A DNA stretch of 64,000 bases from an uncultured Acidimicrobiaceae bacterium (GCA_964581295.1 CAZONX010000003.1:2406-66405); one strand, 5' to 3'. Shown: positions 2,743 through 64,000, numbered from the stretch's first letter. The notes: a model not told the origin generated them from the sequence alone. Translations and numbers: made by a program.

Positions 2743-4988
2743 GCCTGCTCCCTCATTGCTTCCCAGACGCGTTGTGGCGTGAGCGGCAGGTCGCGTATCA
2801 CCAACCCGGTGGCGTCGCGTACCGCGGCGCCGACGGCAGGAGCCGTGCACAGCAGGCTCCCCTCGCTCACACCCTTGACTCCGTACGGACCGGGTCCGTC
2901 GTGGTTCTCGATGCTCTCGCTGATCAACTCGGTCGGTAGGTCCTTGCTGGTAGGAATCCGGTAGTCGATCGCTCCGAGGTTCCTGACGCGGCCTTCCTCA
3001 TCGAGGATGTAGCCCTCCATCAGCGAATGCCCAAGGCCCATGATTGCGGCGCCGTCGTCCTGCCCGTGCACCTGCTGCGGGTTGAGGGCGGTGCCGATAT
3101 CACCGACGGTGACGTGCCGGATAATGGTGATCTCTCCGGTCTCGCCGTCGACCTCCGCCTCGATCGCAGTGCAGTTGAATTCGAAGAATGCTGCCGACCC
3201 GGCGAGCGGATGGCTCGGCACCTTGTCTTTGCGCATCTCACCGTTGCCGATGACTTCGCCGCCGAGCGGAGCGAGCGCCTGCTGCACTACCTCCACGATC
3301 GGCAGGTCTTCGCCTGCGAGACGCACAACGCCGCCGTCAACTTCGATGTCGTCTTCGTCTACGCCGTGGACTCGAGCGGCCATGGCCTTGACCTTGCCGT
3401 GAATGTCCTTGCAGGCGCGGTACACCGAGGTGCCCATGAGCACGGTCGAGCGACTGGCCGATGTCTGCTGGTCGTATGGCACCGTCGCGGTGTCACCCAT
3501 GATCACGTTGACACGTTCGATGGGGATGCCCATCTCCTGTGCAACGATCTGAGCGAACACGGTCCTCGCGCCCTGGCCCATGTCGGACGTCCCACTGAAG
3601 AGGATTGCGCTGCCGTCGTTGAGCAGCCGCACCGTCGAGTAGGACAGTCCGGTCGTCGGCCCCGACTTGAGACCGAGGGCAATGCCCCGGCCGCGACCCT
3701 CCGGAAGCGGCTTGTCCCATCCAATTAGCTCGGCGGCCTTGTCGATTGTCTCGACCCAATTGCCGTCGGCCGGCGTGTCCCCCGGCACGAATTCGTAGCC
3801 CGGCTCCGGCAGATTCCGCTTCCTGATCTCGAGCCGGTCGATCCCCAGCTCGATCGCAGCCTCGTCGAGCGTGGACTCACGCGCCCAGGTGATCTGGGGA
3901 ACACCGAACCCGCGGAACGCGGTCGTGGGCGTGGTGTTCGACAGAATTGTGCGACCCATGATCTTGACGACCGGCACCTTGTAGGGACCGGCCGCGACAT
4001 ACGACGACTTGGCCGCCACTCGATCAGCGATATCGACGTATGCACCGATGAGATAATTGGTCTCGATATCGTTGTAGATCAGCGTGCCGTCGAGCGTCAT
4101 GCCCATCTTCACCCGAACGCGGGTCGACGGGCGACGGACGGCCTGGAACGTCTCTTCGAGCGACATGATCAGACGCACCGGTCGCCCGGTTGCGAGCGCC
4201 ATGTAGCACACGAGCGGTTCGAGCTTCGGGTGCTGTTTGCCGCCGAAGCCCCCGCCGGGGTCCGGAGCGAACACCCGCAACTTCGAGAGCGGGATATCGA
4301 GCAGGCCGGCGAGCGTCTTCTGGAGCTGGAACGGATGCTGAATCGTGCTCCACACGTTGAGTTCGTGACCGTCCGGTTGCGCGATGAACGCGTGCGGCTC
4401 GATTGCGAAGTGCGTGATCATCGGGAATTCGTACTCCCGCTCGATCACGTATTCGGCGTCGCCTTCCACGGCCTCGACGTCGCCCCAACCGAACTTGATC
4501 TCGCTCTTGATGTTGGTGTTAGCGAACGGCTCGCCCTGCCGCAGCGACGGATCCTGAACGAGCGACGCTCCGGGATCGAGGGCAGCATCGATGGAGAAGA
4601 CGGCGGGGAGCACCTCATACTCGATCTCGACGAGGGCGGCAGCCTCTTCGGCGATCTCTTTCGTCTCGGCTGCGACGGCCGCAACCGGTTCACCGTGGTA
4701 GTTCACCGTGTCAACCGCGAGGACCGGGCGGTCCGCGTACTGCGGGCCGAACCGAGGCATCGGCTTCGGCAGGTCGTCCGCCGTCATGATCAGCCGGACC
4801 CCAGGGACTTGCTCAGCCTTCGTGGTGTCGATAGAGATGATGCGCGCACGCGACTCGTCGATCTTGACGAGCTTGGCGTGCAATTCGTCGACGAGATGGA
4901 TGTCTGCGACGTATTGCTGGGCGCCGGTGACACGATCTCTTCCGCCGACACGGTTTGGTGAGGCTCCGACGAGCTCGTTGGCAGTCAT
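2739..4988 (-). CDS. molybdopterin-dependent hydroxylase large subunit (xanthine dehydrogenase / aldehyde oxidase family, CoxL/XdhA-like)
   Basis: 749 aa. Aldehyde-oxidase/XDH a/b-hammerhead plus MoCo-binding domains (GGGFGGK, FRGFGVPQ, …SGTSDMGQGARTVFAQIVAQEMGIP…). Lacks the CODH VAYRCSFR loop. Start at MTANEL (ATG 4988) overlaps the small-subunit stop (ATGA). Confidence 0.9.
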   Translation of the reverse strand: MTANELVGASPNRVGGRDRVTGAQQYVADIHLVDELHAKLVKIDESRARIISIDTTKAEQVPGVRLIMTADDLPKPMPRFGPQYADRPVLAVDTVNYHGEPVAAVAAETKEIAEEAAALVEIEYEVLPAVFSIDAALDPGASLVQDPSLRQGEPFANTNIKSEIKFGWGDVEAVEGDAEYVIEREYEFPMITHFAIEPHAFIAQPDGHELNVWSTIQHPFQLQKTLAGLLDIPLSKLRVFAPDPGGGFGGKQHPKLEPLVCYMALATGRPVRLIMSLEETFQAVRRPSTRVRVKMGMTLDGTLIYNDIETNYLIGAYVDIADRVAAKSSYVAAGPYKVPVVKIMGRTILSNTTPTTAFRGFGVPQITWARESTLDEAAIELGIDRLEIRKRNLPEPGYEFVPGDTPADGNWVETIDKAAELIGWDKPLPEGRGRGIALGLKSGPTTGLSYSTVRLLNDGSAILFSGTSDMGQGARTVFAQIVAQEMGIPIERVNVIMGDTATVPYDQQTSASRSTVLMGTSVYRACKDIHGKVKAMAARVHGVDEDDIEVDGGVVRLAGEDLPIVEVVQQALAPLGGEVIGNGEMRKDKVPSHPLAGSAAFFEFNCTAIEAEVDGETGEITIIRHVTVGDIGTALNPQQVHGQDDGAAIMGLGHSLMEGYILDEEGRVRNLGAIDYRIPTSKDLPTELISESIENHDGPGPYGVKGVSEGSLLCTAPAVGAAVRDATGLVIRDLPLTPQRVWEAMREQA

Positions 4989-17372: not shown

Positions 17373-18057
17373 AGCCACAGGTATCCAGAGCGGCTATACC
17401 GGCGTGACGGTGATCAAGGACCTCGACCTCGACGTAGAGCACGAGATTTTCGCGGTGCTCGGCGCCAACGGGGCAGGCAAAACAACTCTGCTCGCGACGC
17501 TGGCCCGGCTCATCCCGCTGACCGCCGGACAGATGACGTTCGATGGACAAGACATCACGACGGCCCACCCGTGGAACACGGCCGCGCTCGGTCTCGGCTA
17601 CGTGCCCCAGGAGAAGGGCGTCTTCGCCGATCTGACGGTGTTGGAGAACCTCCAGATCGGATCCATGATCGGCGACCGGAGTCAACAAGAACGGATCGAC
17701 GAGATCGTCGAACTCTTCCCCGACATCGGCAAGCGCCAGTCACAAATGGCCGGCACCCTCAGTGGCGGGGAGTCGCGCATGGTCGCCTGCGGACGAGCCT
17801 TGATGCAGGACCCAAAGATGCTTCTGCTGGACGAGCCAACCGCCGGGCTCTCGCCGCTCTACGTAGATACGTTCTTTGAAAAGATTCGCGAGATCCACGA
17901 GACGAAGGACGTCAGCATCATCCTGGCGGAACAGAACGCCACGAAGGCGCTCGAGATCTCAGATCGCGTCATGGTGCTGAGCCTCGGAGAGGCATCCGAA
18001 GTGCTCGATGCCGGTGAATGGACCACCGACAAGCTCAAGGAGGGTTACCGGATCTGA
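17365..18057 (+). CDS. ABC transporter ATP-binding protein (LivF-like)
   Basis: Start at MFEATGIQ (ATG 17365) overlapping the LivG stop as ATGTTTGA. Walker A GANGAGKTT, signature LSGGE, Walker B LLLDEPTAGL. Confidence 0.85.
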   Translation: MFEATGIQSGYTGVTVIKDLDLDVEHEIFAVLGANGAGKTTLLATLARLIPLTAGQMTFDGQDITTAHPWNTAALGLGYVPQEKGVFADLTVLENLQIGSMIGDRSQQERIDEIVELFPDIGKRQSQMAGTLSGGESRMVACGRALMQDPKMLLLDEPTAGLSPLYVDTFFEKIREIHETKDVSIILAEQNATKALEISDRVMVLSLGEASEVLDAGEWTTDKLKEGYRI

Positions 18058-18103
18058 TCGCTGTACGGCGATCCGAATGGAGGAAGAGAAAGGGAAGGGA
18101 CGA

Positions 18104-19585
18104 ATGCGAATACGTTCAAAGAGGTTTGCTAGCGGATTGATCTTGTTGTTCGTGCTTGCGCTGGTCGCCGCTGCTTGTAGCAGTGACAGCGACAGCGGAG
18201 ACAGCGACACGACCGCAGCACCTGAAACAACGACCGCCGCAGCGGGCGACACGACAACGACCGCCGCAGCGGGCGACACGACAACGACCGCCGCAGCGAC
18301 CGAAACGACGGAGGCCATGTCAACGGAGCCAGTGATCGTTTGCGAACTCGCATACTTCACGGGCGAGTTTGCGGCCTACGGACCGTCACTGACGGCGGAT
18401 GTTGAGTTCCCGATCAGCCAGATCATCAACAATGATCCGCCGCTCGGGCGCGAATGGCAGCTCATCTCCGAAGACATCGGTACGCCGGGTGAGGCTCAGG
18501 CAGCTCGTATCTGTCTCGAGCAGCACAACGCCGACATAATGGTCAGCCAGGCGCACGGCTATCGCCAGTACCGCGACTTCATGCTGGAGTATCTTGCCGA
18601 GAACGACAAGCCGCTCGGGCCAACGGTGCACGGCGGGAGCATCCCTGGGAACCTCGGCGGTGTTGGCTCTGAGCCGCTCTTCCGCGCACAGGGACTCGAC
18701 GAGGCGCTTGGCATGACCGGAGCCCTTGCGGCTCAAGATGCCGGCGCCACCTCGGTCGTGATCTTCGCGACCCAGGTCGAGGGTTTCCAGCTCGCGGCGA
18801 ACGCGGCTGAGACCACAGCTGAGGAGTTGGGATTGGAGGTCCTTGACCGGATCGACGTTCCCGCCGAGCAGCCGTCGTACGCAGCTGAAGCCCAACGCAT
18901 CGCCGATCTCGCACCGGATGCTGTGATCGTGCAGGCGGGCTCGGTGGAGTCGGCCACGCTGATCAAGCAGTCCTCTGAGGCCGGCTTGTCCCTCGACTGG
19001 ATCGGTGAGACGGGCTGGATTCAGCCGGAGTTCATCGATACGTTGGGCACGGAGCCCATCGCCAGCCAGAAGAGCGTCGGCTATGCGGCCTTCGCCTACA
19101 ACGACACGACCCCAGCATGGGCGTTCTTCGAGCCGCTGTGGGACGACACTGCCGGATACGGCGACCTGTACGGTCCGGCAACGGACCAGTACCACTTCTC
19201 CACGTACGACCTGATGACGCATACGGCGCTTGCCGTTGAGTACGCAGGCTCGTATGCGGCGAGTGCTTGGGCACCGGCCATGATCGAAGTTGGCAACCCG
19301 CCGGGCACGATGTGCTACACCTACCCGGAGTGCTTGGAACTCATCAGGGCCGGCGAAGACATCGACTACGAGGGTGTCACCGGACCGGGCCTCTACAGCA
19401 AGGGTGGCGTGAACGCACTCGTGCAGTCGTTCACCCCGTTCAATGACGACGGCACTGTCGGAGCGCCGGTCCTCCTCGATCCGGCGCTCGCGTTGGAGGT
19501 TCTCAGCATCATCGCCGTCCAGGCGGAGTGCGAGACCCCGAACCCGGCAGGGACGAACCCGGCATCACCAGGATGTGAGTGGTAA
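18104..19585 (+). CDS. ABC transporter substrate-binding lipoprotein (type-I periplasmic binding fold, Liv/amide-urea-like) with Thr/Ala-rich linker
   Basis: Start at MRIRSKRF (ATG 18104) behind GGAGGAAGAGAAAGGGAAGGGA. Signal peptide plus lipobox-like LVAAAC. Low-complexity SDSDSGDSDTT + (AGDTTTTAA)x2 linker, then a PBP type-I domain. Last gene of the operon. A strong terminator follows. Confidence 0.8.
   Translation: MRIRSKRFASGLILLFVLALVAAACSSDSDSGDSDTTAAPETTTAAAGDTTTTAAAGDTTTTAAATETTEAMSTEPVIVCELAYFTGEFAAYGPSLTADVEFPISQIINNDPPLGREWQLISEDIGTPGEAQAARICLEQHNADIMVSQAHGYRQYRDFMLEYLAENDKPLGPTVHGGSIPGNLGGVGSEPLFRAQGLDEALGMTGALAAQDAGATSVVIFATQVEGFQLAANAAETTAEELGLEVLDRIDVPAEQPSYAAEAQRIADLAPDAVIVQAGSVESATLIKQSSEAGLSLDWIGETGWIQPEFIDTLGTEPIASQKSVGYAAFAYNDTTPAWAFFEPLWDDTAGYGDLYGPATDQYHFSTYDLMTHTALAVEYAGSYAASAWAPAMIEVGNPPGTMCYTYPECLELIRAGEDIDYEGVTGPGLYSKGGVNALVQSFTPFNDDGTVGAPVLLDPALALEVLSIIAVQAECETPNPAGTNPASPGCEW
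18242..18295 (+). repeat. 27-bp tandem duplication (GCGGGCGACACGACAACGACCGCCGCA x2) encoding (AGDTTTTAA)x2 in the SBP linker
   Basis: Direct repeat seen in the DNA and in the translation. Confidence 0.6.
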
Positions 19586-43698: not shown

Positions 43699-44819
43699 GC
43701 CTCACCTCCGAGAGCGGCTGCGGGATCAATTCGAATAATGCGCCGGAACGAGAAGAGCGCCCCGACGGCGCCCATCAGAATGGTTGCAGCAAAGAGCGAT
43801 AGTGCAGTTCCTGTGAGGAACTCGACGGGAACGGAGGCGGGAAGGGCAAGAGCGAGAAGACGCGACAGCGCCCAGCCGACAACGTACCCGGCCACGGTGG
43901 CAATGATCGCCTGGACGAGAACTCCTTGGAGGAGGAAGCGGTTTGATGAGCCAATCGCCTTGAGAATCGCGAACTGGCCTCGCTTCTCGAGGGTGATCAG
44001 TGCGAAGAAGAGGGCGATCACGATGCCTACAACAACGAAGCTGACGACGATGATCGCGGTGAACGTCGACCGCTGCTGGTCGACCCCCGGCAGCGACAGG
44101 ACGGCCTCATCCTTCGAGACAGTTTCGGTCGTCCCGAGTGCCTCGTCGATGGCGGTGCCGACGGACGCGACGGTCATGTCTGGTTCCAGGAGAATCGGAA
44201 AGGCCTGAGCAACCGGGCCCCGTCCGATCGTTTCGGGACGTACTTCGAGTCGGAGGGACTGCCACGTCTCCAGGGGAACCCAGACGGTTGCAGCCAAGAG
44301 ATACCGTGCGTTTTCGACGAAACCGACGATCTCGACTGGCTGCGACGAATCCGTGAGTGTGACCGAGTCACCCAGCGAAATGCCTTGATCCCGAAGGGAG
44401 ACGTCGGCAACCGCGACGAACGGTTCGTCGGGAGCCGGGCGCCGGCCTTCGACCAGCTGGGTCGGCTCGCCAGCGTGACCAGGAATGTGGCCCATCACGG
44501 CAATGTCAAACGCATCGCCGTCGGCGGCCGCGGTCGCCAGGAGGACACCAAGCGCCCCGACGTCGGCAACCCCATCGACCGCTGCTACCTCGGCAAGGTC
44601 GGACAGCGGCAGTTCGCTCCGCACGAGAGAGCGGCGACCGTCGATCGAGTACACGAGTGCATCAGAGTCTCCCGTCTGCAGGGCGCCTGCCGTGCCGACG
44701 AAGAGGCCGTCGGCAAGTGCAGCGAGGACGAGAACGAGGAACACGATGAAACCGACCGCACCAATGACCGATCCCCAGCGACTCCGTCTACGGCGGATCT
44801 CGGCGAGAGCGAGTTCCAT
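43695..44819 (-). CDS. ABC transporter permease (FtsX-like/MacB-type, 4 TM with periplasmic domain)
   Basis: N-terminal TM, large extracytoplasmic domain, C-terminal 3 TM. Overlaps the ATPase gene by 4 nt. Confidence 0.75.
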   Translation of the reverse strand: MELALAEIRRRRSRWGSVIGAVGFIVFLVLVLAALADGLFVGTAGALQTGDSDALVYSIDGRRSLVRSELPLSDLAEVAAVDGVADVGALGVLLATAAADGDAFDIAVMGHIPGHAGEPTQLVEGRRPAPDEPFVAVADVSLRDQGISLGDSVTLTDSSQPVEIVGFVENARYLLAATVWVPLETWQSLRLEVRPETIGRGPVAQAFPILLEPDMTVASVGTAIDEALGTTETVSKDEAVLSLPGVDQQRSTFTAIIVVSFVVVGIVIALFFALITLEKRGQFAILKAIGSSNRFLLQGVLVQAIIATVAGYVVGWALSRLLALALPASVPVEFLTGTALSLFAATILMGAVGALFSFRRIIRIDPAAALGGEA

Positions 44820-45928
44820 CAGTGGGTCCCCTGTGCTGCCGCAGCCGGTTCAGCCCGAGCAATCCGGCGGATCGAAAGCAGCCCGGCCAGAATCGAGAAG
44901 ACGAGAACGGCGAGAGTCACAGTGAACACGAGTCTCGTATCGACCGACAAAGGAAACGCGGGATTCGAGCCCAGCGTGGCGATCCATAGCGCCGCCGTTG
45001 CAAGCAGCGAACCGAGCAACACGAGGATCACGATCTGAAGGATCAATGACCACGCCAGGTAGCCGATCCCGGCGCCGATCGCACGCAGCGTCGTGAAGCT
45101 GCGCATCTTCTGGACCGTCAGGATCAGGAAGAAGAACCCGACAACGAGGACCACAATTCCGAAGGTGATACCGACGATCAGGGCGAAGCTTTGACTGATC
45201 GACTCCACTCCGGGGGTTCCCGCTGCGGCAACCTCGCGATCGAGGCCTTCGACACCGTCAACGGATGCGGTGATGCGGTCGCCCACTGCTCCGGAATCTT
45301 CACCAGGGTCCGTGTCTGCGCCCACCAGCGACAACGGAACGTACGGCGTTCCTGGGAACTCAGCTTCGTAAACGGCCGCCCACTCCTCAAAGCTGAGGTA
45401 CGCCGTCGCGATCACGGCGTATCTCACGTCTTCGGCATAGCCGACGATCTCGAGTTCGGTGCCGCTCGGCACCAGCGTGATCGTTTCGCCGATTTCGAAC
45501 CCTTCAGACACTCCGGACTCGTCTACCACCACCTCACCCCTGCCGGGAGAGCGGCCCTCTACGATTGGTTCGGGCCTTCCGGGCCCATTGAAATCGACCC
45601 CCCAGAGCGAGACATCAGTGAGGCTTCCACCCACCTCGGCAGTGAGGGTCAGCTCGCCTATCGGAGCCGCTGCAGACACGCCCGGCACGGCTGCCACCTG
45701 GTCGACGACGGATTGGTCGAGCCGGCTCGCCTGCAGGTTTCTTCTCGCCGTGTCCTCGTACACCAGGACTTCGGCTGAGTTGTTCTCGATCGCTCCAACG
45801 AAGAACCCGAGCAACGTTGCCGAAAGCGTGTTGAGAAACAGCAGGAGAAACACGAGGAGCGCGATCGCTCCGGCCAGCAGGCCGAAGCGCAGTTTCGAAC
45901 GCCAAAGATCTCGGAGAGCAACGAACAT
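44819..45928 (-). CDS. ABC transporter permease (FtsX-like), paralog
   Basis: Same architecture as the previous gene. Stop overlaps the next start by 1 nt (TGATG). Confidence 0.75.
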   Translation of the reverse strand: MFVALRDLWRSKLRFGLLAGAIALLVFLLLFLNTLSATLLGFFVGAIENNSAEVLVYEDTARRNLQASRLDQSVVDQVAAVPGVSAAAPIGELTLTAEVGGSLTDVSLWGVDFNGPGRPEPIVEGRSPGRGEVVVDESGVSEGFEIGETITLVPSGTELEIVGYAEDVRYAVIATAYLSFEEWAAVYEAEFPGTPYVPLSLVGADTDPGEDSGAVGDRITASVDGVEGLDREVAAAGTPGVESISQSFALIVGITFGIVVLVVGFFFLILTVQKMRSFTTLRAIGAGIGYLAWSLILQIVILVLLGSLLATAALWIATLGSNPAFPLSVDTRLVFTVTLAVLVFSILAGLLSIRRIARAEPAAAAQGTH

Positions 45929-45997
45929 AGGACTCCATGGTATGGAGCTATTCGGCCGAACCGATCAGGTGGCGCCCGGATCTCAACTGTTCAGGCA

Positions 45998-46116
45998 CGC
46001 CAACGCAAGGACCCCTTGCACAGCAAGGGGTCTCGGCGTGCTCCTTCGGAGTCCGTTGCACGCCCGAAGTAACCCGACCCTGTCGCTTTGCGACAGACCC
46101 CATCCTCTTGATCCGT
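45998..46116. repeat. ~118-bp three-hairpin intergenic element, copy 1
   Basis: ~85% identical to 63735..63851. Conserved hairpins GACCCCTTG-(loop)-CAAGGGGTC, CTCC-TTCG-GGAG and GTCGC-TTT-GCGAC. Differences are concentrated in loops and linkers. Confidence 0.6.
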
Positions 46117-46355
46117 AGTCACACAACCCTCATGCCAAACCGTACCGCCCAGTGCTGTCACGTCATACCCAGTACGGGCTTCCGCTGGTCGCTGTACCGC
46201 CCCGTACCACGCCGTTGGGTTGCAGATCGGGTTGCGGAACGTAGCGCGGCCCGAGACCAGATCTCGTCGGTTGGAGCCCCGTCAGAGGTGGCACCGCAAG
46301 ACCTGTCGTGGCGTGCCAGGGAACACACCGAGCCACCGCTCCGAGCGTTCGCCCG

Positions 46356-48299
46356 TCAGGGGGTGACGATGTTGAACCAGAAGTTCGATCCAAGATCGTC
46401 GAGCGAACCCAGCAGCTCTCCGAGCTCTTCCCGGCTTCCGTCGACCTGAACAGTGCCATTCTCGATCTCTGTGTCCACATCGGATTGACCGGCAAGAATC
46501 TTGTTCAGAGTCGCACGGTCCAGGGTCACCGTGGCATCGGCCGTCGGTTCCGAGTAATCGGACCAATGGTTCAACACCGAGTTCTCGAGGAAGAGAGTGT
46601 GCTTCTCCTTGATATCCGGGAGATTGAAATTGATCGCCAGGGTCTTGCCCTCTGCCCGCTTCGCATTCAGCTGAACGCCCATGTAACCGAAAACGAGCTT
46701 CAGAGACATGTTCGCGATGATGTCGGGCGAGGTCGTGTTCGGGGTGGGTAGCTCCATCACGCCATTTCGTAGCTCACTGGCGCCGGCGAGATAGAAGTTC
46801 CGCCACGGCCCGCTCTCTGCCTGATACCCCATCTGCTCGAGTGCATCGGCCTGCAGACTCCTCGCCTCCTGATTGTCGGGCTGAGCGAAGACAAGATGAT
46901 TGATGAGCTCGGCAGCCCAGCGATACTCTCCCTGTGCGATCGCTTCGGTGCCGATCTCGAGCACTCGCGCTGCTCCACCCATCGCCGTCACGTATTTCAG
47001 ACCCACCTCTACTGGTGGTAGTGGATCCAAATGCGCCGGGTTTCCATCGAAGTAACCCAGATAGAAGTTGTACACGGCGCGGACGTTGTGACTCTGGGAG
47101 CCGTAGTAGCCGTGCGTCGACCATTGCTCAATGAGCGATTGCGGAATCTCGACGAGATCCGGCAACTCGTTCATCGTGTAACCCATATTGGCAAAGTGCA
47201 GCGTCTGGTCGTGTAGGTACTTGTAGATATCGCGCTGTGCCTTGATGTGGTCGACGACTTCCTCGTTCCCCCAGGTTGGCCAGTGATGCTGGGCGATCTC
47301 GACCTCGACTTCGCCGCCGTACGTCTTCAAGACCTCATTCAGATAGCCCGGCCACTTCTGCGCGTCCCGCGTTTTCGCGCCGCGGAGCGTGTAGAGATTG
47401 TGCATGTTGTGCGTCGAGTCTTCGGCCATATTGAGCATCTTGAACTTCGGCATGTACCACATCATCTCCGAGGGAGCCTCGGAGCCTGGCGCCATGACAA
47501 ATACGTGCTCGATCCCGTCAATCGTGTGTCTCTCGCCGGTCTTCTCGATGAGATGCGTGGGTGCGATCACCGTTGTCTCTCCCGACGAAGTCGTGATTCC
47601 GAGACCGGCGGTCATCTGCCCCGTCGGGCCCTTCGGAAGCAGATTGCCGTACATGTAGCTTGCGCGGCGCCCCATTGCGGTCCCCGCGTATACGTTCTCC
47701 TCGATCGCGTCGTCAAGGAAGCCTGAGGGCGCGAAGATCGGCACCTCGCCCGCGTCCACCGCTTCCTCATCGACGATGCCCCGGACTCCCCCGAAATGAT
47801 CGATGTGCGAATGGGTGTAGATCACGGCCGTGACGGGTTTCTTGCCGCGCTCGGCGCGGTAGAGCGCGAGTGCGTATCTCGCTGTCTCCTTGGAGATCAG
47901 AGGGTCAACGATGATGATGCCCTTGTCGCCTTCGACGATCGTCATGTTCGAGAGGTCCGCACCTCGAACTTGATAGACCCCTTCGACGACCTCGAACAAG
48001 CCGCTGTGCATCAGGAGCTGGGCCTGGCGCCACAGACTCGGATTCGCCGTCTTGGGCGCGGCCGCTTCATCCTTGATGAACGCGCGGAACGCATCGAGAT
48101 CCCAGACGACATTTCCGTCGGAGTCCTTGACCACGCCCTTGTTCGGGAGCTTGGCGATCAGGCCACGTTTGGCGTTCTCAAAGTCCCGGCTGTCGTTGAA
48201 AGGCAGAATCGAACGCAGTGCGTTGTTTGCTCTTCTTGTGACGGCTGAGGCGGGCTTCGACTCCGCGCTGGCGATCGCTGCGGGCTTTGCGTCGGTCAT
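46356..48299 (-). CDS. alkyl/aryl-sulfatase (SdsA1/BDS1-like: MBL-fold + SCP2-like + C-terminal domain)
   Basis: MBL motif THSHIDHFGG and alkyl-sulfatase dimerisation/C-terminal domains. 647 aa. Confidence 0.8.
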   Translation of the reverse strand: MTDAKPAAIASAESKPASAVTRRANNALRSILPFNDSRDFENAKRGLIAKLPNKGVVKDSDGNVVWDLDAFRAFIKDEAAAPKTANPSLWRQAQLLMHSGLFEVVEGVYQVRGADLSNMTIVEGDKGIIIVDPLISKETARYALALYRAERGKKPVTAVIYTHSHIDHFGGVRGIVDEEAVDAGEVPIFAPSGFLDDAIEENVYAGTAMGRRASYMYGNLLPKGPTGQMTAGLGITTSSGETTVIAPTHLIEKTGERHTIDGIEHVFVMAPGSEAPSEMMWYMPKFKMLNMAEDSTHNMHNLYTLRGAKTRDAQKWPGYLNEVLKTYGGEVEVEIAQHHWPTWGNEEVVDHIKAQRDIYKYLHDQTLHFANMGYTMNELPDLVEIPQSLIEQWSTHGYYGSQSHNVRAVYNFYLGYFDGNPAHLDPLPPVEVGLKYVTAMGGAARVLEIGTEAIAQGEYRWAAELINHLVFAQPDNQEARSLQADALEQMGYQAESGPWRNFYLAGASELRNGVMELPTPNTTSPDIIANMSLKLVFGYMGVQLNAKRAEGKTLAINFNLPDIKEKHTLFLENSVLNHWSDYSEPTADATVTLDRATLNKILAGQSDVDTEIENGTVQVDGSREELGELLGSLDDLGSNFWFNIVTP

Positions 48300-48574
48300 G
48301 GTGTCTCCTCTATCTGAAACCGGTCACTCTGGAGTTCGCTACGGACGAACTCTACGGATCGCTGGTTGGAAGCAATGCCAACCCAGAAACTCTCTCCGCA
48401 GACGCACCTCGGCGGATCACTCCACGGATCGACTATCGGAACGCCTCAACGGTGGTGTGGTTCGAATCTCCATTGGCGCATCAGACTCTCACGGTCCAAG
48501 TGCCCCGTAAACCAACGCAACCCTCGAATGCCGAACGAGCCACGCCGCGATCATGACGCAGCTCCGGCAATCGA

Positions 48575-48817
48575 CTACTCGTCCTGCTTGCTCTCTTCTT
48601 GGATGAGGGCTCGCAGCGTGTCGAAGAGTTCGGGAGGCGGTTGGGTGCGGCCTCGTTCGCGAATCACGCCCTTGAGTTTCGTCTCGAATTCAAAGGCGCT
48701 CATGCACGACGAGCAGCGTCTGAGGTGGAGCTTGATCCGGGAGGAATGGACGACCGAGATCTCATCATCCAGGTACTGGTAGATATATTCGATGGCGTGG
48801 TCACAACCGCTACTCAT
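48575..48817 (-). CDS. zinc-binding anti-sigma factor (ZAS family, RsrA-like)
   Basis: 80 aa. C5-x-H7 plus H-x3-C-x2-C (HLRRCSSC), characteristic of RsrA-type anti-sigma factors. Overlaps the sigma-factor gene by 8 nt. Confidence 0.75.
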
Positions 48818-49376
48818 GCGCCTGTCCTGTGATTCCGTGCTGCTCTGCCAGGTCCCACAACTTCTTCTGAAGCGCTTTTCTTCCCCGATGCAACCGAGAC
48901 ATCACGGTGCCGATCGGGATATCGAGGATCTCGGCAATCTCCTTGTATGAGAATCCTTCGACGTCGGCGTACAGCACCGGCATCCGAAACACTTCGGGAA
49001 GCGCCTCCAGCGCATCAGTGATATCCGTATCAACGAACGCATCGAGCATGTCCGCTTCGGCGCTCGGAGCCGCACCCGACACCTCACCGAGACGCTTGTA
49101 TAGGTACAGATCCTGGAGCTCACCCAACTCCACCTCGGACGGACGACGCTGCGCCTTGCGATACGTATTGATGTACGTGTTCGTCAAGATCCGATACAGC
49201 CACGCCTTGAGATTCGTGCCTTCTGTGTAGGAGTGATAGGCCCGATACGCCTTGAGGAACGTCTCCTGCACGACGTCTTGTGCATCAGCCGGGTTTCGTG
49301 TCATGCGCAACGCCGCCGAATACAACTGGGGCGCGTACTGCATCGCATCCCGCTCAAAGTCCGCCTGATCCGCCAC
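48810..49376 (-). CDS. ECF RNA polymerase sigma factor (SigR/SigE-like, sigma-70 regions 2 and 4)
   Basis: Region 2 (…[16 protein letters not shown]…[13 protein letters not shown]) and region 4 (…[28 protein letters not shown]). GTG start 49376 behind GGAGGGAG. Confidence 0.85.
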
Positions 49377-49482
49377 GGCGCTCCCTCCTAGGAGGCATGT
49401 ACTTTAGAGCGCAACCACATGCATCAGGCTCTGCGATCGCCCTGCCGCCCGGTCGGCACAAGCCGGTGTCTACGCTCAGGCC

Positions 49483-51441
49483 GTGATCTCGTATGTGCCC
49501 TCAACCATGCCTATCGTCGATCCGTCCCCGGTCATCGAGCGCGAGTGGATCGTCACCAACGGGATCGGCGGATACTCCTCGGGAACCATTGCAGGCGTGC
49601 TGACGCGGCGATACCACGGGCTATTGGTGGCCGCTCTCGATCCACCTCTCCGACGTACTGTCCTCGTCGCTAAACTCGACGACTCCGTCTCTTTCGGCGA
49701 AGATCCGGCACCTCTGTTCGCCAACCAATGGGGCGATGCGCAAGCACCGGTCGAGCCAAACGGGTTTCGGCACCTCATCCGATTCGATCTCGAGGGCACG
49801 ACGCCGGTGTGGTCGTACGAGATCGACGGCGCAGTACTCGAGAAGCGAGTCTGGATGACACCCGGTGCCAACACCACGTACGTTCGGTACGACTACCAGT
49901 CCGGTCCGCGCACCCTCCGTCTCGGAGCGAAGGTCTTGGTGAACCACCGCGACTTCCACCAGGCGACGCACTCCGGTGATTGGCGCATGGCGGTCCGAGA
50001 TGTCGCCCACGGCGTCAGAGTCGACGCTTTCGACGGCGCTGCACCCATCCACCTGCTCAGCGACGGTGCGTCGATCGAGCCGCGTCACGAGTGGTATCGA
50101 GACTACTTCTTGAGCGTTGAAGCATTCAGGGGTCTCGACGCGCTCGACGACAATCTGTACGCAGCCTACGTCGAAGCAACCCTCGAACCCGGCGAATCGG
50201 TCACCCTGGTAGCAAGCACCGAGCCGACGCCGTTGCTCGACGGTGCGGAAGCGCTGGCCGTGCGCACGCGATACGAGGCCGCCCTCATCGAGGTGGCCTC
50301 CGTCAACGGCGATGACCTCCTTGAGCGCCTGGTTCTGGCGGCCGACCAGTTCATCGTACGGAAATCATCCGATGGGGAGGAAGGCAGGACGGTGATCGCC
50401 GGGTACCACTGGTTCGGAGACTGGGGGCGAGACACGATGATTGCCCTTCCCGGGTTGAGACTGGCCACGGGGCGTCTCACCGAGGCCGCCCAGATTCTGC
50501 GCACGTTCGCTCGTCACGTTGATCGCGGGATGCTCCCGAACCGTTTCCCCGATGACGGCGACCTCCCCGAGTACAACACGATCGATGCGACGCTGTGGTT
50601 CTTCGAAGCGATCCGAGCCTTCCACGCCGTCGCCGACGACGTCGGATTGGTCGCCGACCTCTTCCCAGTGCTCGCGGACATCATCAGATGGCATCAGAAG
50701 GGGACTCGCTACGGGATTCGCGTCGACCCGGCCGATGGACTGCTCGCCGGCGGCGAACCGGGAGTTCAGTTGACATGGATGGACGCGAAGGTCGGCGATT
50801 GGGTAGTGACGCCGCGTATCGGCAAACCCGTCGAGATCAATGCCCTGTGGTACAACGCCCTCCGCATCATGGCCGATTTCGCTCGGACCCTCGGCGAGGA
50901 CCCGACACCGTACGACGCTGCGGCCGACACGGCGCAGAACGGTTTTGGGCGTTTCTGGAACGAAGAAAGAGGCTTCTGCTTCGACGTCATCGGCGGCCCG
51001 AACGGCGACGACGCGGCGCTCCGACCCAACCAACTGTTCGCCGTGTCGCTTTTTCACAGTCCGCTTCCCCCCGACCGTCAGCGCTCCGTGGTCGACGCCT
51101 GTGCTGCCTCGCTGCTGACGCCGCTCGGGCTTCGCACCCTCGGTCCGGACGAACCGGCGTATCGGGGTCGCTACGGCGGTGGACCGGTTGAACGCGACGG
51201 TGCATACCACCAGGGAACGGTGTGGCCGTGGCTCATCGGTCCGTTCGCCGATGCTCATCGGCGCGTCTACGACGACCCGGACGCCATCGAGAGCTTCCTT
51301 GATCCGCTCATCGCACACCTCGATGAATACGGCATGGGCAGCATCGCAGAGTGTGCCGAAGGAGATCCGCCACACGATCCACGAGCCACGATCGCCCAGG
51401 CATGGAGTGTCGCGGAAGTCTTGCGCGTGTTGCGGCGTTGA
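49483..51441 (+). CDS. glycogen-debranching-enzyme-type amylo-alpha-1,6-glucosidase (GDE_N_bis + GDE_C domains)
   Basis: 652 aa, …GYHWFGDWGRDTMIALPGL… (alpha/alpha)6-barrel GDE_C signature. Start could be GTG 49483 or ATG 49507. Confidence 0.8.
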   Translation: MISYVPSTMPIVDPSPVIEREWIVTNGIGGYSSGTIAGVLTRRYHGLLVAALDPPLRRTVLVAKLDDSVSFGEDPAPLFANQWGDAQAPVEPNGFRHLIRFDLEGTTPVWSYEIDGAVLEKRVWMTPGANTTYVRYDYQSGPRTLRLGAKVLVNHRDFHQATHSGDWRMAVRDVAHGVRVDAFDGAAPIHLLSDGASIEPRHEWYRDYFLSVEAFRGLDALDDNLYAAYVEATLEPGESVTLVASTEPTPLLDGAEALAVRTRYEAALIEVASVNGDDLLERLVLAADQFIVRKSSDGEEGRTVIAGYHWFGDWGRDTMIALPGLRLATGRLTEAAQILRTFARHVDRGMLPNRFPDDGDLPEYNTIDATLWFFEAIRAFHAVADDVGLVADLFPVLADIIRWHQKGTRYGIRVDPADGLLAGGEPGVQLTWMDAKVGDWVVTPRIGKPVEINALWYNALRIMADFARTLGEDPTPYDAAADTAQNGFGRFWNEERGFCFDVIGGPNGDDAALRPNQLFAVSLFHSPLPPDRQRSVVDACAASLLTPLGLRTLGPDEPAYRGRYGGGPVERDGAYHQGTVWPWLIGPFADAHRRVYDDPDAIESFLDPLIAHLDEYGMGSIAECAEGDPPHDPRATIAQAWSVAEVLRVLRR

Positions 51442-60687: not shown

Positions 60688-61163
60688 GCTTGTGTCTCCT
60701 TCTTCGAGTCGTGTTGTCCTGTCTCTATCGCCCGCACCTTGGCGAGGCGTCGGAGGTGGCGTTCTTCGCCTGAGAAGACTGCGTTGCTGAACGCCGAGGC
60801 CAACTCCCTGGCGACCGCCTGGCCGATCACGCGGCCGCCAAGTACAAGGACGTTCATGTCGTCGTGTTCGACCCCTTGCCGGGCCGAGTAGGTGTCGTGA
60901 GCCAAGCCGGCACGGATCCCTGTGAGCTTGTTCGCCGCGACGGAAGCACCGACACCGCTGCCACACACGATGATGCCGCGGTCGGCTCTGCCATCGAGGA
61001 CCGCTCTGCCTACGGCCTCGGCGAAGTCGGGATAGTCGACCGGCTCGGGACCGTGTGTTCCAAGGTCGACGATGACGTGACCCTGCCCATCGAGGAGAGC
61101 GATGAGGTCGTCCTTGATCTCATAGCCGGCATGGTCTGCGCCGAGGGCGAAGCGCATCGTCAC
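60684..61163 (-). CDS. rpiB: ribose-5-phosphate isomerase B
   Basis: [16 protein letters not shown]…[19 protein letters not shown] overlaps on both sides. Confidence 0.85.
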
Positions 61164-63154
61164 GACCTCCCGACGAGTGCCGTTGCTCGCTCCACGACGT
61201 GATCCACGGTGAATCCCAAATCGGCGTAAACGTCCGGACCGGGTCCCGATGCTCCGAATCGATCGATCGAGATGACTTCGCCGCTGTCGCCGACGAACTC
61301 ATGCCACCCCATGCTGTGAGCAGCCTCGATCGCCAGTCTGGGCACGCCGACGGGCAACACAGATTCGCGGTACTCGTCTGACTGCTCGCGAAAGATCTCC
61401 CACGACGGCAACGAAACGACCCGGGCAGCAATACTCATGTCGGCAAGACGATCCGCAGCGTCGAGGGCAAGGCTCACCTCCGAACCTGTGGCGATGAGAG
61501 TCACCTGGGGGCTCTCACGGTCGGCCCCCCGAATGACGTAGCCACCGCTGGGGACTCCTTCGCTCACGGGATAATGATCGGTTGCGAGCACCGGCAGCTT
61601 CTGGCGGGTGAGGACAAGCACCGTGGGTCCCGGCCGTTCAACCGCGATTCGCCATGCTGCGACCGTCTCGTTCGCATCGGCGGGTCGCAGGACCACGATC
61701 CCCGGGATCGACCGCAGGCTCGCAAGGTGTTCGACCGGCTGGTGGGTCGGCCCGTCTTCGCCGACCGCGATGCTGTCGTGGGTGAACACGTAGACCGCGT
61801 GGGTCTGCATCACTGCCGAGAGGCGGAGGGCAGGACGCAGATAGTCGGCAAACACGAAGAACGTCGCGCCGAAGGGCAGAACGCCGCCGTGCAGCGCCAT
61901 CCCGTTGATGATGGCGCCCATGGCGTGCTCTCGAATGCCGAAGTGGATATTGCGGCCGGAACCGTTGTCGAGCCCGAAGTCTCCAAGCCCGATCAGCTCG
62001 GTCTTCGTCGATGGATTCAGATCTGCGGAGCCGCCGATGAAGGTCGGGTAGCCGCGAGCAATACCGTTCATCACCGCGCCGGAGGCGTCGCGGGTCGAGA
62101 CGGGTCCCCCGTCCGGATCGAATGCGGGGATCTGCCCGGCCCATCCCTCTGGCGCGCGCCCCTCAACGGCTTCGTCGAACTCTGCTGCGAGCTCGGGGTA
62201 CTCGTTGCGGTAGCGTGCGAGAAGACGAGTCCATGCCGCATTACGATCGCTGCCTTCGTCCCGTGATCGTACGAAGTGGGCGGCGGCCTCGTCGGGAACG
62301 AAGAAGGACGGTTCGGTCGGCCATCCGAGCGCCTCCTTGGTGGCTGCGACGCCGTCGGCGCCGAGCGGCTCCCCGTGAACCGCCGCTGTGTCCTGGCGCG
62401 GGCTGCCGAAACCGATGTGGTTCCTGACCATGATCAACGACGGGCGCTGGCTGGCTCTGGCTGCCTCGATTGCACCCTCGATCGCATCGAGGTCGGTGCC
62501 GTCGGCGACTCGGAGGACCTGCCATCCGTAGGCCTCGAATCTGCGTTCGACGTCTTCGCGGAAGGCGAGGTCGGTGTCGCCTTCGATCGAGATGTGGTTG
62601 TCGTCGTAGAGGTAGATCAACTTGCCGAGACCGAGTGTTCCTGCCAGTGAAGCCGCTTCGGATGAGATGCCTTCCATGAGGTCGCCATCCGAGACGATTG
62701 CATACGTGGTGTGGTCCACGATTGGGAAGTCGGGGCGGTTGAAGTGGGATGCGAGGAAGCGTTCGGCGATAGCCATGCCGACCCCCATGGCGAATCCCTG
62801 ACCAAGGGGCCCGGTCGTGGCCTCGACGCCGGCAGTGTGTCCGTACTCGGGGTGTCCCGGTGTCGCGCTGCCGGTCTGGCGGAAGCGGCGGACCTCGTCC
62901 ATGTGAAGTCCGTACCCGTAGACGTGGAGGAGCGCGTAGAGCATCGCCGAACCATGACCGGGTGACAGGACGAATCGGTCTCTGTTGAACCATGAGGGAT
63001 CTGTAGGGTCGTGGCGGAGGAAGCGGTCCCATAGCGTGTAGGCCATCGGCGCTGCACCGAGGGGCAGACCCGGGTGCCCGGAGTTGGCTTGTTCCACCGC
63101 GTCGACGGCGAGAAAGCGGATCGTGTTGACGTTGATCTGATCGAGGTCGGTCAT
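61160..63154 (-). CDS. tkt: transketolase
   Basis: 664 aa, …[19 protein letters not shown]… ThDP motif plus Pyr and C-terminal domains. RBS AAAGGA. First gene of the tkt-rpiB-tal/pgi-HAD-gnd-zwf operon. Confidence 0.9.
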
Positions 63155-63734
63155 GGGGGTCCTTTGGGTTGGTTAGCCGATCGCCGGAGTCGTGAGCTTG
63201 CGAAGTGGTTCCGGGACTCTCAGTAGGTCAAGCGAGGGACCGGTCCAAATATGCCCGAGTTGCCTCGCGTCAAGACCACAGCCACACCATTGGGCCCAAC
63301 CGATCCGCCCCACGTGGCCACTCGACCGGCTCCACGTCGCGCGACGAGGAGCGCGAGTCGATACAGGCGACTGCCGATGACGTTCGCCATCTCGAACAGT
63401 GCCTCGGCCAGCCAACCGTCCGACGCGGGGCTTTGCGGATGGAGTGTCGGCTAGCGGGTCCGCGGATGCAATACCTGTCGCTCACCCAGCGGTCCGACCG
63501 AGCGCGGATCCGATCAGCAGCCCCTTCCCCGGTCGGGACGCTGGCTTGCTCCCGGCTCTGGCTGTGGTCGCGACTTCTCGTCCTCGCCGGAATCAACCCC
63601 CCGAGGCTCTAAGCGGAACTGACCCGTTGACCCGTTGGCAGCGAGTCAATCACCATTCTCGGCAATCACCGGCAAACGCGGCCGACCAAGATACAACCGA
63701 GAAATCCGCAGGCCAGACACAGCAGTTCGGGAGC

Positions 63735-63851
63735 GCCAATGCAAAGACCCCTTGCACGACAAGGGGTCTTTGCATACTCCTTCGGAGTCCGTTGCACGCC
63801 CAGCGGAACTCGACCCTGTCGCTTTGCGACGGGCCCCATCCTCCTGATCCG
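63735..63851. repeat. ~118-bp three-hairpin intergenic element, copy 2
   Basis: Matches 45998..46116. Here the first hairpin extends to a perfect 15-bp stem (TGCAAAGACCCCTTG / CAAGGGGTCTTTGCA). Confidence 0.6.
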
Positions 63852-64000
63852 CAAATCTCCAAGGGGTGTCCACAGGCGTCCAGAGCTATTGGCTCCCAGC
63901 GAGGGCACTGGCCAGAGCAGTGCGGCAGGAGTACATGCTTCCGCAGCGACCCATACATGGCCCGGAACGTCTGCAGGGCAAGGATTATCGGTTGCGGGAT

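Follow-up and report, generated by a model that had tools for sequence, protein, structure and literature searches.

Integration into tRNA genes follows a general mechanism, in which the target gene is regenerated and its old fragment comes to lie at the far end of the island (PMC4383910). Tandem accretion, with partial tRNAs scattered at variable regions, is described for tycheposon islands (bioRxiv 10.1101/2020.12.28.424599), and cis-mobilisable elements (CIMEs) are integrase-less units bounded by att sites that can be mobilised in cis (PMC5704250). The tRNA-Arg(ACG) gene is an integration hot spot in Corynebacterium, where a 100-bp repeat creates a pseudo-tRNA (PMC4293111). Here we describe a 135-nt intergenic repeat, present in two copies (copy 1 and copy 2) in a 64-kb stretch of DNA (the window; GCA_964581295.1 CAZONX010000003.1:2406-66405) from an uncultured Acidimicrobiaceae bacterium, which is represented by metagenome assemblies alone and whose proteins have their named homologues in metagenome-assembled genomes (MAGs) of Acidimicrobiia. 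The element is homologous to tRNA-Arg(ACG) and the hairpin that trails this gene. Both copies are most probably displaced and decayed tRNA-Arg(ACG) 3' fragments with their trailing hairpin, the att-site relics of integrative elements that targeted tRNA-Arg.

Copy 1 (45984-46118) and copy 2 (63720-63854) lie in the same orientation and align without gaps over 135 nt each, with 23 mismatches (83% identity). An earlier note, made from the sequence alone, had described two same-orientation copies that are about 85% identical, which is borne out at a slightly greater length; over the 118-nt core given there, the identity is 86%. A repeat finder applied to the whole window returned a single 132-nt pair (45984-46115 and 63720-63851, 84% identical), which is the sole long non-coding repeat of the 64 kb. 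The identical 25-mer and 20-mer blocks shared by the copies occur twice each in the window, as compared with 0.00-0.02 occurrences expected from shuffles.

Contigs carrying orthologues of the FtsX-type permease encoded next to copy 1 were compared at several divergence levels. In one of these (L009, 92% FtsX identity), weak partial matches to the element were found in three intergenic gaps, and the region upstream of FtsX contains two perfect 45-nt direct repeats, CTACGGATCAGGAGGTTGGGGGTTCGAGTCCCTCCGGGCGTGCCG, located 726 bp apart. These flank a HicA/HicB-like pair, and a Fic/antitoxin pair follows. In tRNA numbering, the L009 repeat starts with the anticodon loop C32 U33 A34 C35 G36 G37 A38, with the anticodon ACG (Arg), and continues with the 3' anticodon stem, the variable loop, the T arm GGGGG-TTCGAGT-CCCTC and the acceptor 3' strand up to the discriminator. 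The Rfam tRNA model places both repeats in the same register, at a sub-threshold 16-18 bits, as would be expected of a sequence with no 5' half. When a 24-mer from this repeat was scanned against the genome collection, at least 120 loci were obtained; of the 126 occurrences checked locally with ARAGORN, 103 lie inside tRNA-Arg(ACG) genes.

The minus strands of copies 1 and 2 align to the fragments of L009 and of a further contig, L135, as well as to genuine tRNA-Arg genes of Acidimicrobiia MAGs (L057, L086), with 16-17 of 18 nt matching at the anticodon-stem/variable region and 8-9 of 9 at the acceptor strand. In L057, the genuine tRNA-Arg is followed on its 3' side by GAACCCTTG-CTGTG-CAAGGGTTTC-TTCGCGTTCGC, with the hairpin stem AACCCTTG-CTGTG-CAAGGGTT; at the matching position copy 1 reads GAGACCCCTTG-CTGTG-CAAGGGGTCC-TTGCGTTGGC, with the same loop and tail. 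An independent profile, built from six sequences of relatives and none from the window, was searched against the 64 kb. It matched copies 1 and 2 only (minus strand, E~1e-7 each); the best match after these had E=2. The fragment homology begins in the anticodon loop, a canonical crossover sublocation, as in att remnants. Read on the minus strand (the tRNA sense), the two copies are composed as follows.

45984-46118, minus strand: copy 1, whole element, a decayed tRNA-Arg(ACG) 3' fragment with trailing hairpin (relatives-only profile match 46118-46006, E=1.4e-7)
46098-46118, minus strand: copy 1, tRNA-like start CTACGGATCAAGAGGATGGGG, tRNA positions 32-52 by alignment to fragments and genes
46080-46097, minus strand: copy 1, insertion 1, 18 nt, hairpin CTGTCGC-AAA-GCGACAG, interrupting the T-stem
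46058-46079, minus strand: copy 1, T-loop and 3' T-stem, both decayed, followed by the acceptor 3' strand CGGGCGT, which is intact, and discriminator G
46033-46057, minus strand: copy 1, insertion 2, about 20-25 nt, separating the tRNA end from the trailing hairpin
46010-46032, minus strand: copy 1, trailing hairpin GACCCCTTG-CTGTG-CAAGGGGTC, homologous to the hairpin directly 3' of genuine tRNA-Arg genes
63720-63854, minus strand: copy 2, whole element, with the substructure of copy 1 (relatives-only profile match 63851-63742, E=9.9e-8)
63834-63854, minus strand: copy 2, tRNA-like start TTGCGGATCAGG... (in full TTGCGGATCAGGAGGATGGGG)
63816-63833, minus strand: copy 2, insertion-1 hairpin
63794-63815, minus strand: copy 2, decayed T arm and acceptor strand
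63769-63793, minus strand: copy 2, insertion 2
63746-63768, minus strand: copy 2, trailing hairpin, extended to 16 bp at 63739-63775, terminator-like by scan
63855-63899, minus strand: copy 2, upstream element-side arm GGGAGCCAATAGCTCTGGACG + CCTGTGGACA + CCCTTGGAGAT (arm profile E=7e-7)

The tRNA-like start CTACGGATCAAGAGGATGGGG thus contains the anticodon loop with ACG, the 3' anticodon stem, the variable loop and the 5' T-stem. Insertion 1, listed in the earlier note as the hairpin GTCGC-TTT-GCGAC, occurs neither in real tRNA-Arg genes nor in the canonical fragments. Insertion 2 holds a 4-bp hairpin, CTCC-GAA-GGAG, which on the plus strand reads CTCC-TTC-GGAG; this is the sequence CTCCTTCGGAG that had been taken for a UUCG tetraloop, and it forms 4 bp with a 3-nt loop rather than C(UUCG)G. 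Of the claim that three stems are perfectly kept, it stands that all are identical in both copies, the middle hairpin having been misread, and the copy-2 stem given as 15 bp in fact has 16. The stem GACCCCTTG/CAAGGGGTC and the GTCGC-TTT-GCGAC hairpin do not differ between the copies, and the variable 'linker', CGAAGTAACC in copy 1 and AGCGGAACTC in copy 2, is the decayed T arm. The three hairpins hence correspond to the tRNA gene's own trailing hairpin and two lineage-specific insertions common to both copies. As the two hairpin-forming insertions and the destroyed T arm are shared, both copies would descend from one fragment that had already been modified. ARAGORN made no tRNA call over either copy in the window; the element is without the 5' half, and its T arm is mutated and split by the 18-nt insertion. 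That the minus strand is a tRNA-Arg 3' fragment is the key point that the initial description had missed.

Both strands of the copies fold more stably than shuffles (z -2.5 to -6.9), as is expected of any sequence with three perfect hairpins. Together with the identical hairpin cores and one or two compensatory changes in stem extensions, such folds could indicate a small structured non-coding RNA family, independently transcribed and acting via its three hairpins; we consider this very improbable. None of the 23 differences between the copies falls in the three core stems, but these stems were picked for being conserved. With stems taken from the minimum free energy (MFE) fold of one copy, there is no depletion of mismatches at paired positions (P=0.23-0.85), and of the pairs touched roughly half are broken, the compensatory cases being the one or two in the stem extensions. 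The statement that substitutions are confined to loops and linkers therefore holds for the three short core stems only, and not for MFE-defined stems. For the trailing hairpin, pairing among eight homologues is seen in 83% of cells, as compared with 24-70% with slid partners, and the tRNA-sense strand carries all the G-U wobbles; covariation in these eight is no better than in column shuffles. Given that there is no excess covariation and that paired positions are not spared, there is no evidence for an overall conserved RNA fold. The covariation check on the element likewise gave no stem-preserving signal, and is uninformative with the copies at hand.

Database searches point in the same direction. 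No Rfam family was found in the whole window at the gathering score, and around the two copies only chance-level matches appeared at E<=10. The exact 21-mer of the best-conserved block has no match in 185,579 species-representative genomes or in IMG/VR viral contigs, and in JGI metagenome contigs it matches the locus of copy 1 itself and nothing else. A distant-mode BLASTN search of plasmid and phage collections returned nothing resembling the element. Its six-frame translation, compared with 5.8 billion proteins in order to detect spurious open reading frames (ORFs) over further copies, found only its own locus. No copies beyond the two were thus obtained from these collections. In addition, orthologous loci in relatives are without the element, there is no promoter-like site at either copy, and the tRNA fragment, the two insertions and the trailing hairpin together account for the whole sequence. 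The RNA-family proposal is therefore largely refuted on its own terms, there being no Rfam match, two copies only, empty orthologous loci and no covariation signal.

A role in termination has more in its favour. Both copies lie between co-directional minus-strand genes, and the long hairpin derives from the tRNA-Arg trailing hairpin, with the pairing and the strand-specific wobbles described above. A simple terminator scan calls the copy-2 hairpin with its TCTTTGCATT tail terminator-like on the minus strand. The element may accordingly have been co-opted as an intergenic terminator or insulator, its conservation between the loci (including the absence of differences in the three core stems) reflecting selection against read-through into the FtsX and tkt operons. 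We regard this as possible, if somewhat unlikely: the copy-1 hairpin is not called because its tail holds too few T's, the corresponding junctions of relatives do without the element, and the more fairly defined stems show no sparing of paired positions. It would also be an add-on function, which leaves the origin of the element unexplained. Among the options first put forward, a duplicated terminator module comes closest, in that the long hairpin is homologous to the tRNA-Arg trailing hairpin. Compared with the intrinsic terminators that follow tRNA genes, the copies retain a GC-rich hairpin directly 3' of the tRNA, the position and largely the sequence of which are conserved in Acidimicrobiia tRNA-Arg; they differ in that the T-tract is weak or, in copy 1, absent, and the terminator is a predicted one. 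Ending transcription between co-directional genes (sulfatase to FtsX operon; zinc-dependent alcohol dehydrogenase to tkt) would be the most plausible residual activity of the trailing hairpin. The copies may also serve as substrates for further recombination.

A mobile repeat resembling miniature inverted-repeat transposable elements (MITEs) or repetitive extragenic palindromes (REPs), or a short leader-peptide gene, is extremely improbable. The former idea draws on the intergenic position, the hairpins and a 7-nt direct repeat, ATCCGCA, flanking copy 2; it is countered by the lack of terminal inverted repeats, the lack of a consistent target-site duplication (none at copy 1) and the presence of only two copies. 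The 7-nt repeat (TGCGGAT on the minus strand, from the former anticodon-loop region) is located at 63704-63710 and 63847-63853, and copy 1 has no equivalent. At its distal occurrence a third, nearly erased tRNA fragment may begin, or the match may be due to chance.

A leader peptide was suggested by the minus-strand AGGAGG-ATG, at which 51- and 80-aa minus-strand ORFs start or which they span. However, AGGAGG-ATG is the tRNA's own AGGAGGTTGGGG with one T>A change and is inherited from it, and leaves no spacer between Shine-Dalgarno and ATG. The two 'peptides' differ by 9 non-synonymous and 4 synonymous changes (hand count) and have no homologue besides their own locus among the 5.8 billion proteins, and this candidate was rejected. 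Public gene calls also contain a 168-170 aa plus-strand ORF that covers copy 1 and the sulfatase-FtsX spacer (45937-46449; L001:9480-9992; protein P0001). It is almost certainly spurious, as it has no Pfam hit and no homologue besides its own, and overlies a tRNA-derived repeat.

Canonical versions of the fragment are present in relatives of the Acidimicrobiia and Actinomycetota, as perfect direct repeats that bound small cargo units. In four contigs (L107, L066, L080 and L036), an intact tRNA-Arg(ACG) heads a series of one to three further 3' fragments, in direct orientation and spaced at 0.3-4 kb; in these contigs and in L135, each array unit ends in an arm and a tRNA fragment. The arrays span the following segments.

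L107:1100-5800, array in MAG
L066:350-2030, array in MAG
L080:1785-6500, array in MAG
L036:3700-5815, array in MAG
L135:425-3240, array in MAG
L009:900-2480, array in MAG

The units are small (0.3-4 kb, often one gene) and are bounded by tRNA-Arg 3' fragments, with GGGAGCCA arm motifs on both sides. Across the at least 120 loci, GGGAGCCA precedes 10 of 18 fragments at a distance of no more than 260 nt, and none of 106 intact genes. On the downstream side of intact genes it is found within 220 nt in 11 cases, 9 of which belong to Acidimicrobiia or other Actinomycetota, against a background of 0.18 per kb. In L135 and L009 the arm is ordered as GGGAGCCAAT-CTGGGAGCCAATAGCTCTGGAC, a 10-nt-periodic GNCTGTGGAC run, TTGGAGAT and the tRNA core. 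The GNCTGTGGAC runs, with the GGGAGCCAATAGCTCTGGAC motif on one side and the tRNA-derived core on the other, have 5-7 copies (L135:450-545 and 3020-3110; L009:1564-1653) and look like putative arm-type protein-binding sites. Copy 2 retains the GGGAGCCA arm motif, and its arm at 63855-63899 is 90-97% identical to the arms 5' of the tRNA-Arg fragments in L135 and L009; it is a shortened version that keeps a single GNCTGTGGAC unit (63867-63874). The cargo between fragments comprises HicAB and Fic toxin-antitoxin pairs, an alpha/beta-hydrolase, DUF998, an HxlR-FAD oxidase, a helicase with a REase_MTES_1575 domain, a Schlafen/AlbA_2 protein, pentapeptide-repeat proteins and several proteins with no Pfam match.

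By the textbook mechanism, a site-specific integrase joins the attP of a mobile element, on which the 3' part of the tRNA is duplicated, to the chromosomal tRNA gene; the gene is restored, and its former 3' part ends up at the distal end of the inserted DNA. Successive integrations build up tandem units separated by partial tRNAs, and decay then leaves cargo-only units and scattered partial tRNAs. The arrays might represent an undescribed cassette-like system of Acidimicrobiia and other Actinomycetota, integron-like in function and based on a tRNA att site, with tandem units behind tRNA-Arg(ACG) and a recombinase encoded elsewhere; copies 1 and 2 would then be diverged yet usable landing pads that seed variable regions beside core operons. 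We hold this to be quite improbable. If a dedicated recombinase exists, the arrays would be a compact gene-capture system worth describing, and the integrase-less, GGGAGCCA-armed small units behind tRNA-Arg(ACG), the most interesting by-product of this analysis, deserve a study of their own.

A viral scan with the 24-mer found two phage tRNA clusters and one unrelated, low-GC attP-like fragment, and a viral scan with the arm motif found none. The attP-like fragment (L148:681-715, on an IMG/VR contig of GC 0.34) is a tRNA-Arg(ACG) 3' fragment that starts from the anticodon loop and lies outside any tRNA call. It probably represents an attP for an unrelated host, and implies that the anticodon-loop sublocation is used elsewhere too.

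In the window, both copies lie at junctions of core and variable DNA, in the same orientation and each between tandem minus-strand genes. The genes concerned are given below.

44819-45928, minus strand: FtsX-type permease, ATG at 45928
46356-48299, minus strand: alkylsulfatase, stop at 46356
61160-63154, minus strand: tkt, with copy 2 located 581 nt upstream of its start

Copy 1 is located in the spacer between the first two genes, where 237 nt separate it from the preceding sulfatase stop and 55 nt from the FtsX ATG that follows, and not within the 3' region of the sulfatase gene as first thought; for copy 2, the distance of about 580 bp upstream of tkt was accurate. On a contig reaching past the window, copy 2 is found about 215 nt downstream of a co-directional zinc-dependent alcohol dehydrogenase gene. 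L009 is 88% identical to the window across the FtsX operon, and this homology ends at 45981, three bases from the inner edge of copy 1. At the outer edge, three contigs from two independent assemblies (L002, L005 and L007) begin at CTA|CGGATCA (46115), in the former anticodon; copies 1 and 2 share no long k-mer at this point that would explain a contig break. The gene upstream of the FtsX operon is different in every relative sampled, with six neighbours in all.

Window: sulfatase and copy 1
L009 and L143: toxin-antitoxin array with canonical fragments
L140-L142: galactokinase, element absent
L011: epimerase
L013: metallophosphatase
L014: BTAD regulator

At the tkt junction, a relative with 91% tkt identity (L144) shares the 445 nt upstream of tkt, and divergence begins about 120 nt before copy 2. 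In two more distant relatives (L145 and L146, 83-86%), the upstream neighbour of tkt is a ROK gene at a distance of 90 nt, and neither the element nor the arm is found at the tkt loci of these three. The gene order tkt-rpiB-tal/pgi-HAD-gnd-zwf-...-YjeF_N-GH63 of the window is kept in L146, and the segment from copy 2 to copy 1 is therefore largely core genome as opposed to an inserted island. This agrees with the earlier view that the bracketed segment is not island-like. The suggestion that the copies bracket it as direct repeats is right in so far as they are repeats of the attachment-site type, but the tkt-to-GH63 block between them is conserved core synteny. The 17.6-kb segment as a cargo unit was ruled out on the same ground, and the gene upstream of FtsX in L009 is not an orthologue of the alcohol dehydrogenase gene. 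The region 46000-50000, with the alkylsulfatase and an extracytoplasmic function (ECF) sigma/anti-sigma pair, has a GC content of 0.596-0.600, compared with 0.62-0.65 elsewhere in the region, a difference that fits weakly with the sulfatase/ECF-sigma segment being the acquired part at the copy-1 junction. A comparison of the synteny of window genes with genuine tRNA-Arg loci revealed nothing meaningful.

The pentose-phosphate operon beside copy 2 has two further features. The 445 nt upstream of tkt (63155-63599; L008:3141-3585; L144:2032-2477) are 88% conserved with L144 and not conserved with the 83-86% relatives; this stretch ahead of the operon may be an unusually long conserved non-coding sequence, or a small ORF. 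The operon also encodes a 914-aa fused transaldolase-phosphoglucose isomerase (TAL_FSA and PGI domains), conserved in relatives.

About 57.9-60.7 kb in the window, minus strand: fused TAL_FSA and PGI gene (L008:6053-8797; L146:12468-15212)

Are the sites still in use? Copies 1 and 2 could be active attachment sites, either secondary attB landing pads or attL/attR of mobilisable units, with the integrase encoded elsewhere or on the incoming element and the two junctions as current hot spots. Preservation with respect to real tRNA is highest in the presumed-crossover part (CGGATCA..GAGG.TGGGG) and in the acceptor strand, while the T arm is decayed, and CIMEs show that units with att sites at their ends can move in cis without an integrase of their own (PMC5704250). 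Strains with 92% identical FtsX have three configurations at the copy-1 junction. The contig ends at CTA|CGGATCA in two independent assemblies of one population suggest strain-level alternative junctions, although they are only suggestive and low coverage can also break contigs. On the other hand, no integrase was found in the Pfam lists near the copies or in about 40 ORFs of relatives, copy 1 is without arm motifs, the copies have diverged by 17% from each other, and the insertions lie inside the former core region. Current activity is thus clearly unlikely, and we infer that both copies have become relics, without tRNA function, at two junctions of insertion or rearrangement.

Several observations weigh against the interpretation of the copies as att-site relics. 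ARAGORN found no intact tRNA-Arg over the window and the adjoining 2.9 kb (window and L008), and pairing with an intact tRNA gene in direct orientation is seen only in the arrays of L107, L066, L080 and L036. The Pfam lists contain no recombinase families within about 10 kb of copy 1, about 10 kb on the tkt side of copy 2 or the 2.9 kb beyond copy 2, and none was present in the roughly 40 ORFs of the relatives' arrays and flanks, which include the far side of the intact tRNAs. An arm profile detects no arm motif at all at copy 1, and only copy 2 passes the terminator scan. The two insertions common to both copies have no counterpart among all other sequences found. Finally, the route by which the fragment reached two loci that have no tRNA is unexplained; rearrangement between fragments, secondary-site integration and tRNA loss are possibilities. 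As no integrase was found near the copies or in the arrays, it is the architecture from which site-specific recombination is deduced, and the junctions at copies 1 and 2 would have been made by an integrase.

Among described systems, the partial-tRNA direct repeats catalogued by Islander (PMC4383910) share with the copies the 3' part of a tRNA starting from the anticodon loop, the direct orientation and the position at a conserved/variable boundary, and the canonical versions in relatives are perfect repeats behind an intact tRNA gene. Copies 1 and 2 differ in having no paired intact tRNA and no integrase found nearby, in their strong decay, and in carrying two shared hairpin insertions together with the trailing hairpin of the tRNA gene. 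The Corynebacterium hot spot used by corynephages and the C. ulcerans tox island (PMC4293111) involves the same tRNA and anticodon in the same phylum, with a repeat of about 100 bp that exceeds the tRNA part and a pseudo-tRNA at the far end. That repeat is near-perfect and adjoins an intact tRNA, and the island has integrases, whereas copies 1 and 2 are old and isolated, with no integrase found. The arrays of relatives resemble CIMEs (PMC5704250) and tycheposons in being composed of small units with no integrase found and with partial tRNAs between them, in their accessory cargo (toxin-antitoxin, defence genes, hydrolases), and in the degenerate partial tRNAs scattered at variable regions. In contrast, the units of relatives are very small (0.7-4 kb), often with a single gene, and share the GGGAGCCA and GNCTGTGGAC-repeat arm; no recombinase family was found with them, and they are likened to these systems by architecture.

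The repeat is consequently no new RNA but an ordinary relic: a known kind of sequence, in a new example with unusual modifications. In annotation, the 135-nt repeats should be labelled pseudo-tRNA-Arg or att-site remnants in place of candidate small RNAs, and spurious ORF calls over the copies, such as the 168-170 aa call across copy 1, should be dropped. The copies flag two junctions, at which the operons of an FtsX-type ABC transporter and of the pentose-phosphate pathway meet strain-variable DNA, in an uncultured marine lineage of the Acidimicrobiia. In addition, they suggest that tRNA-Arg(ACG) is a major insertion hot spot in Acidimicrobiia, as in Corynebacterium.

Elsewhere in the window, a 27-nt tandem repeat (18227-18309; 3.1 copies, 94% match) encodes a low-complexity linker of the TTTAAAGD type. 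In the encoded 525-aa solute-binding-like protein (18008-19585, plus strand), this linker comes directly after the lipoprotein signal peptide; the repeat is ordinary.

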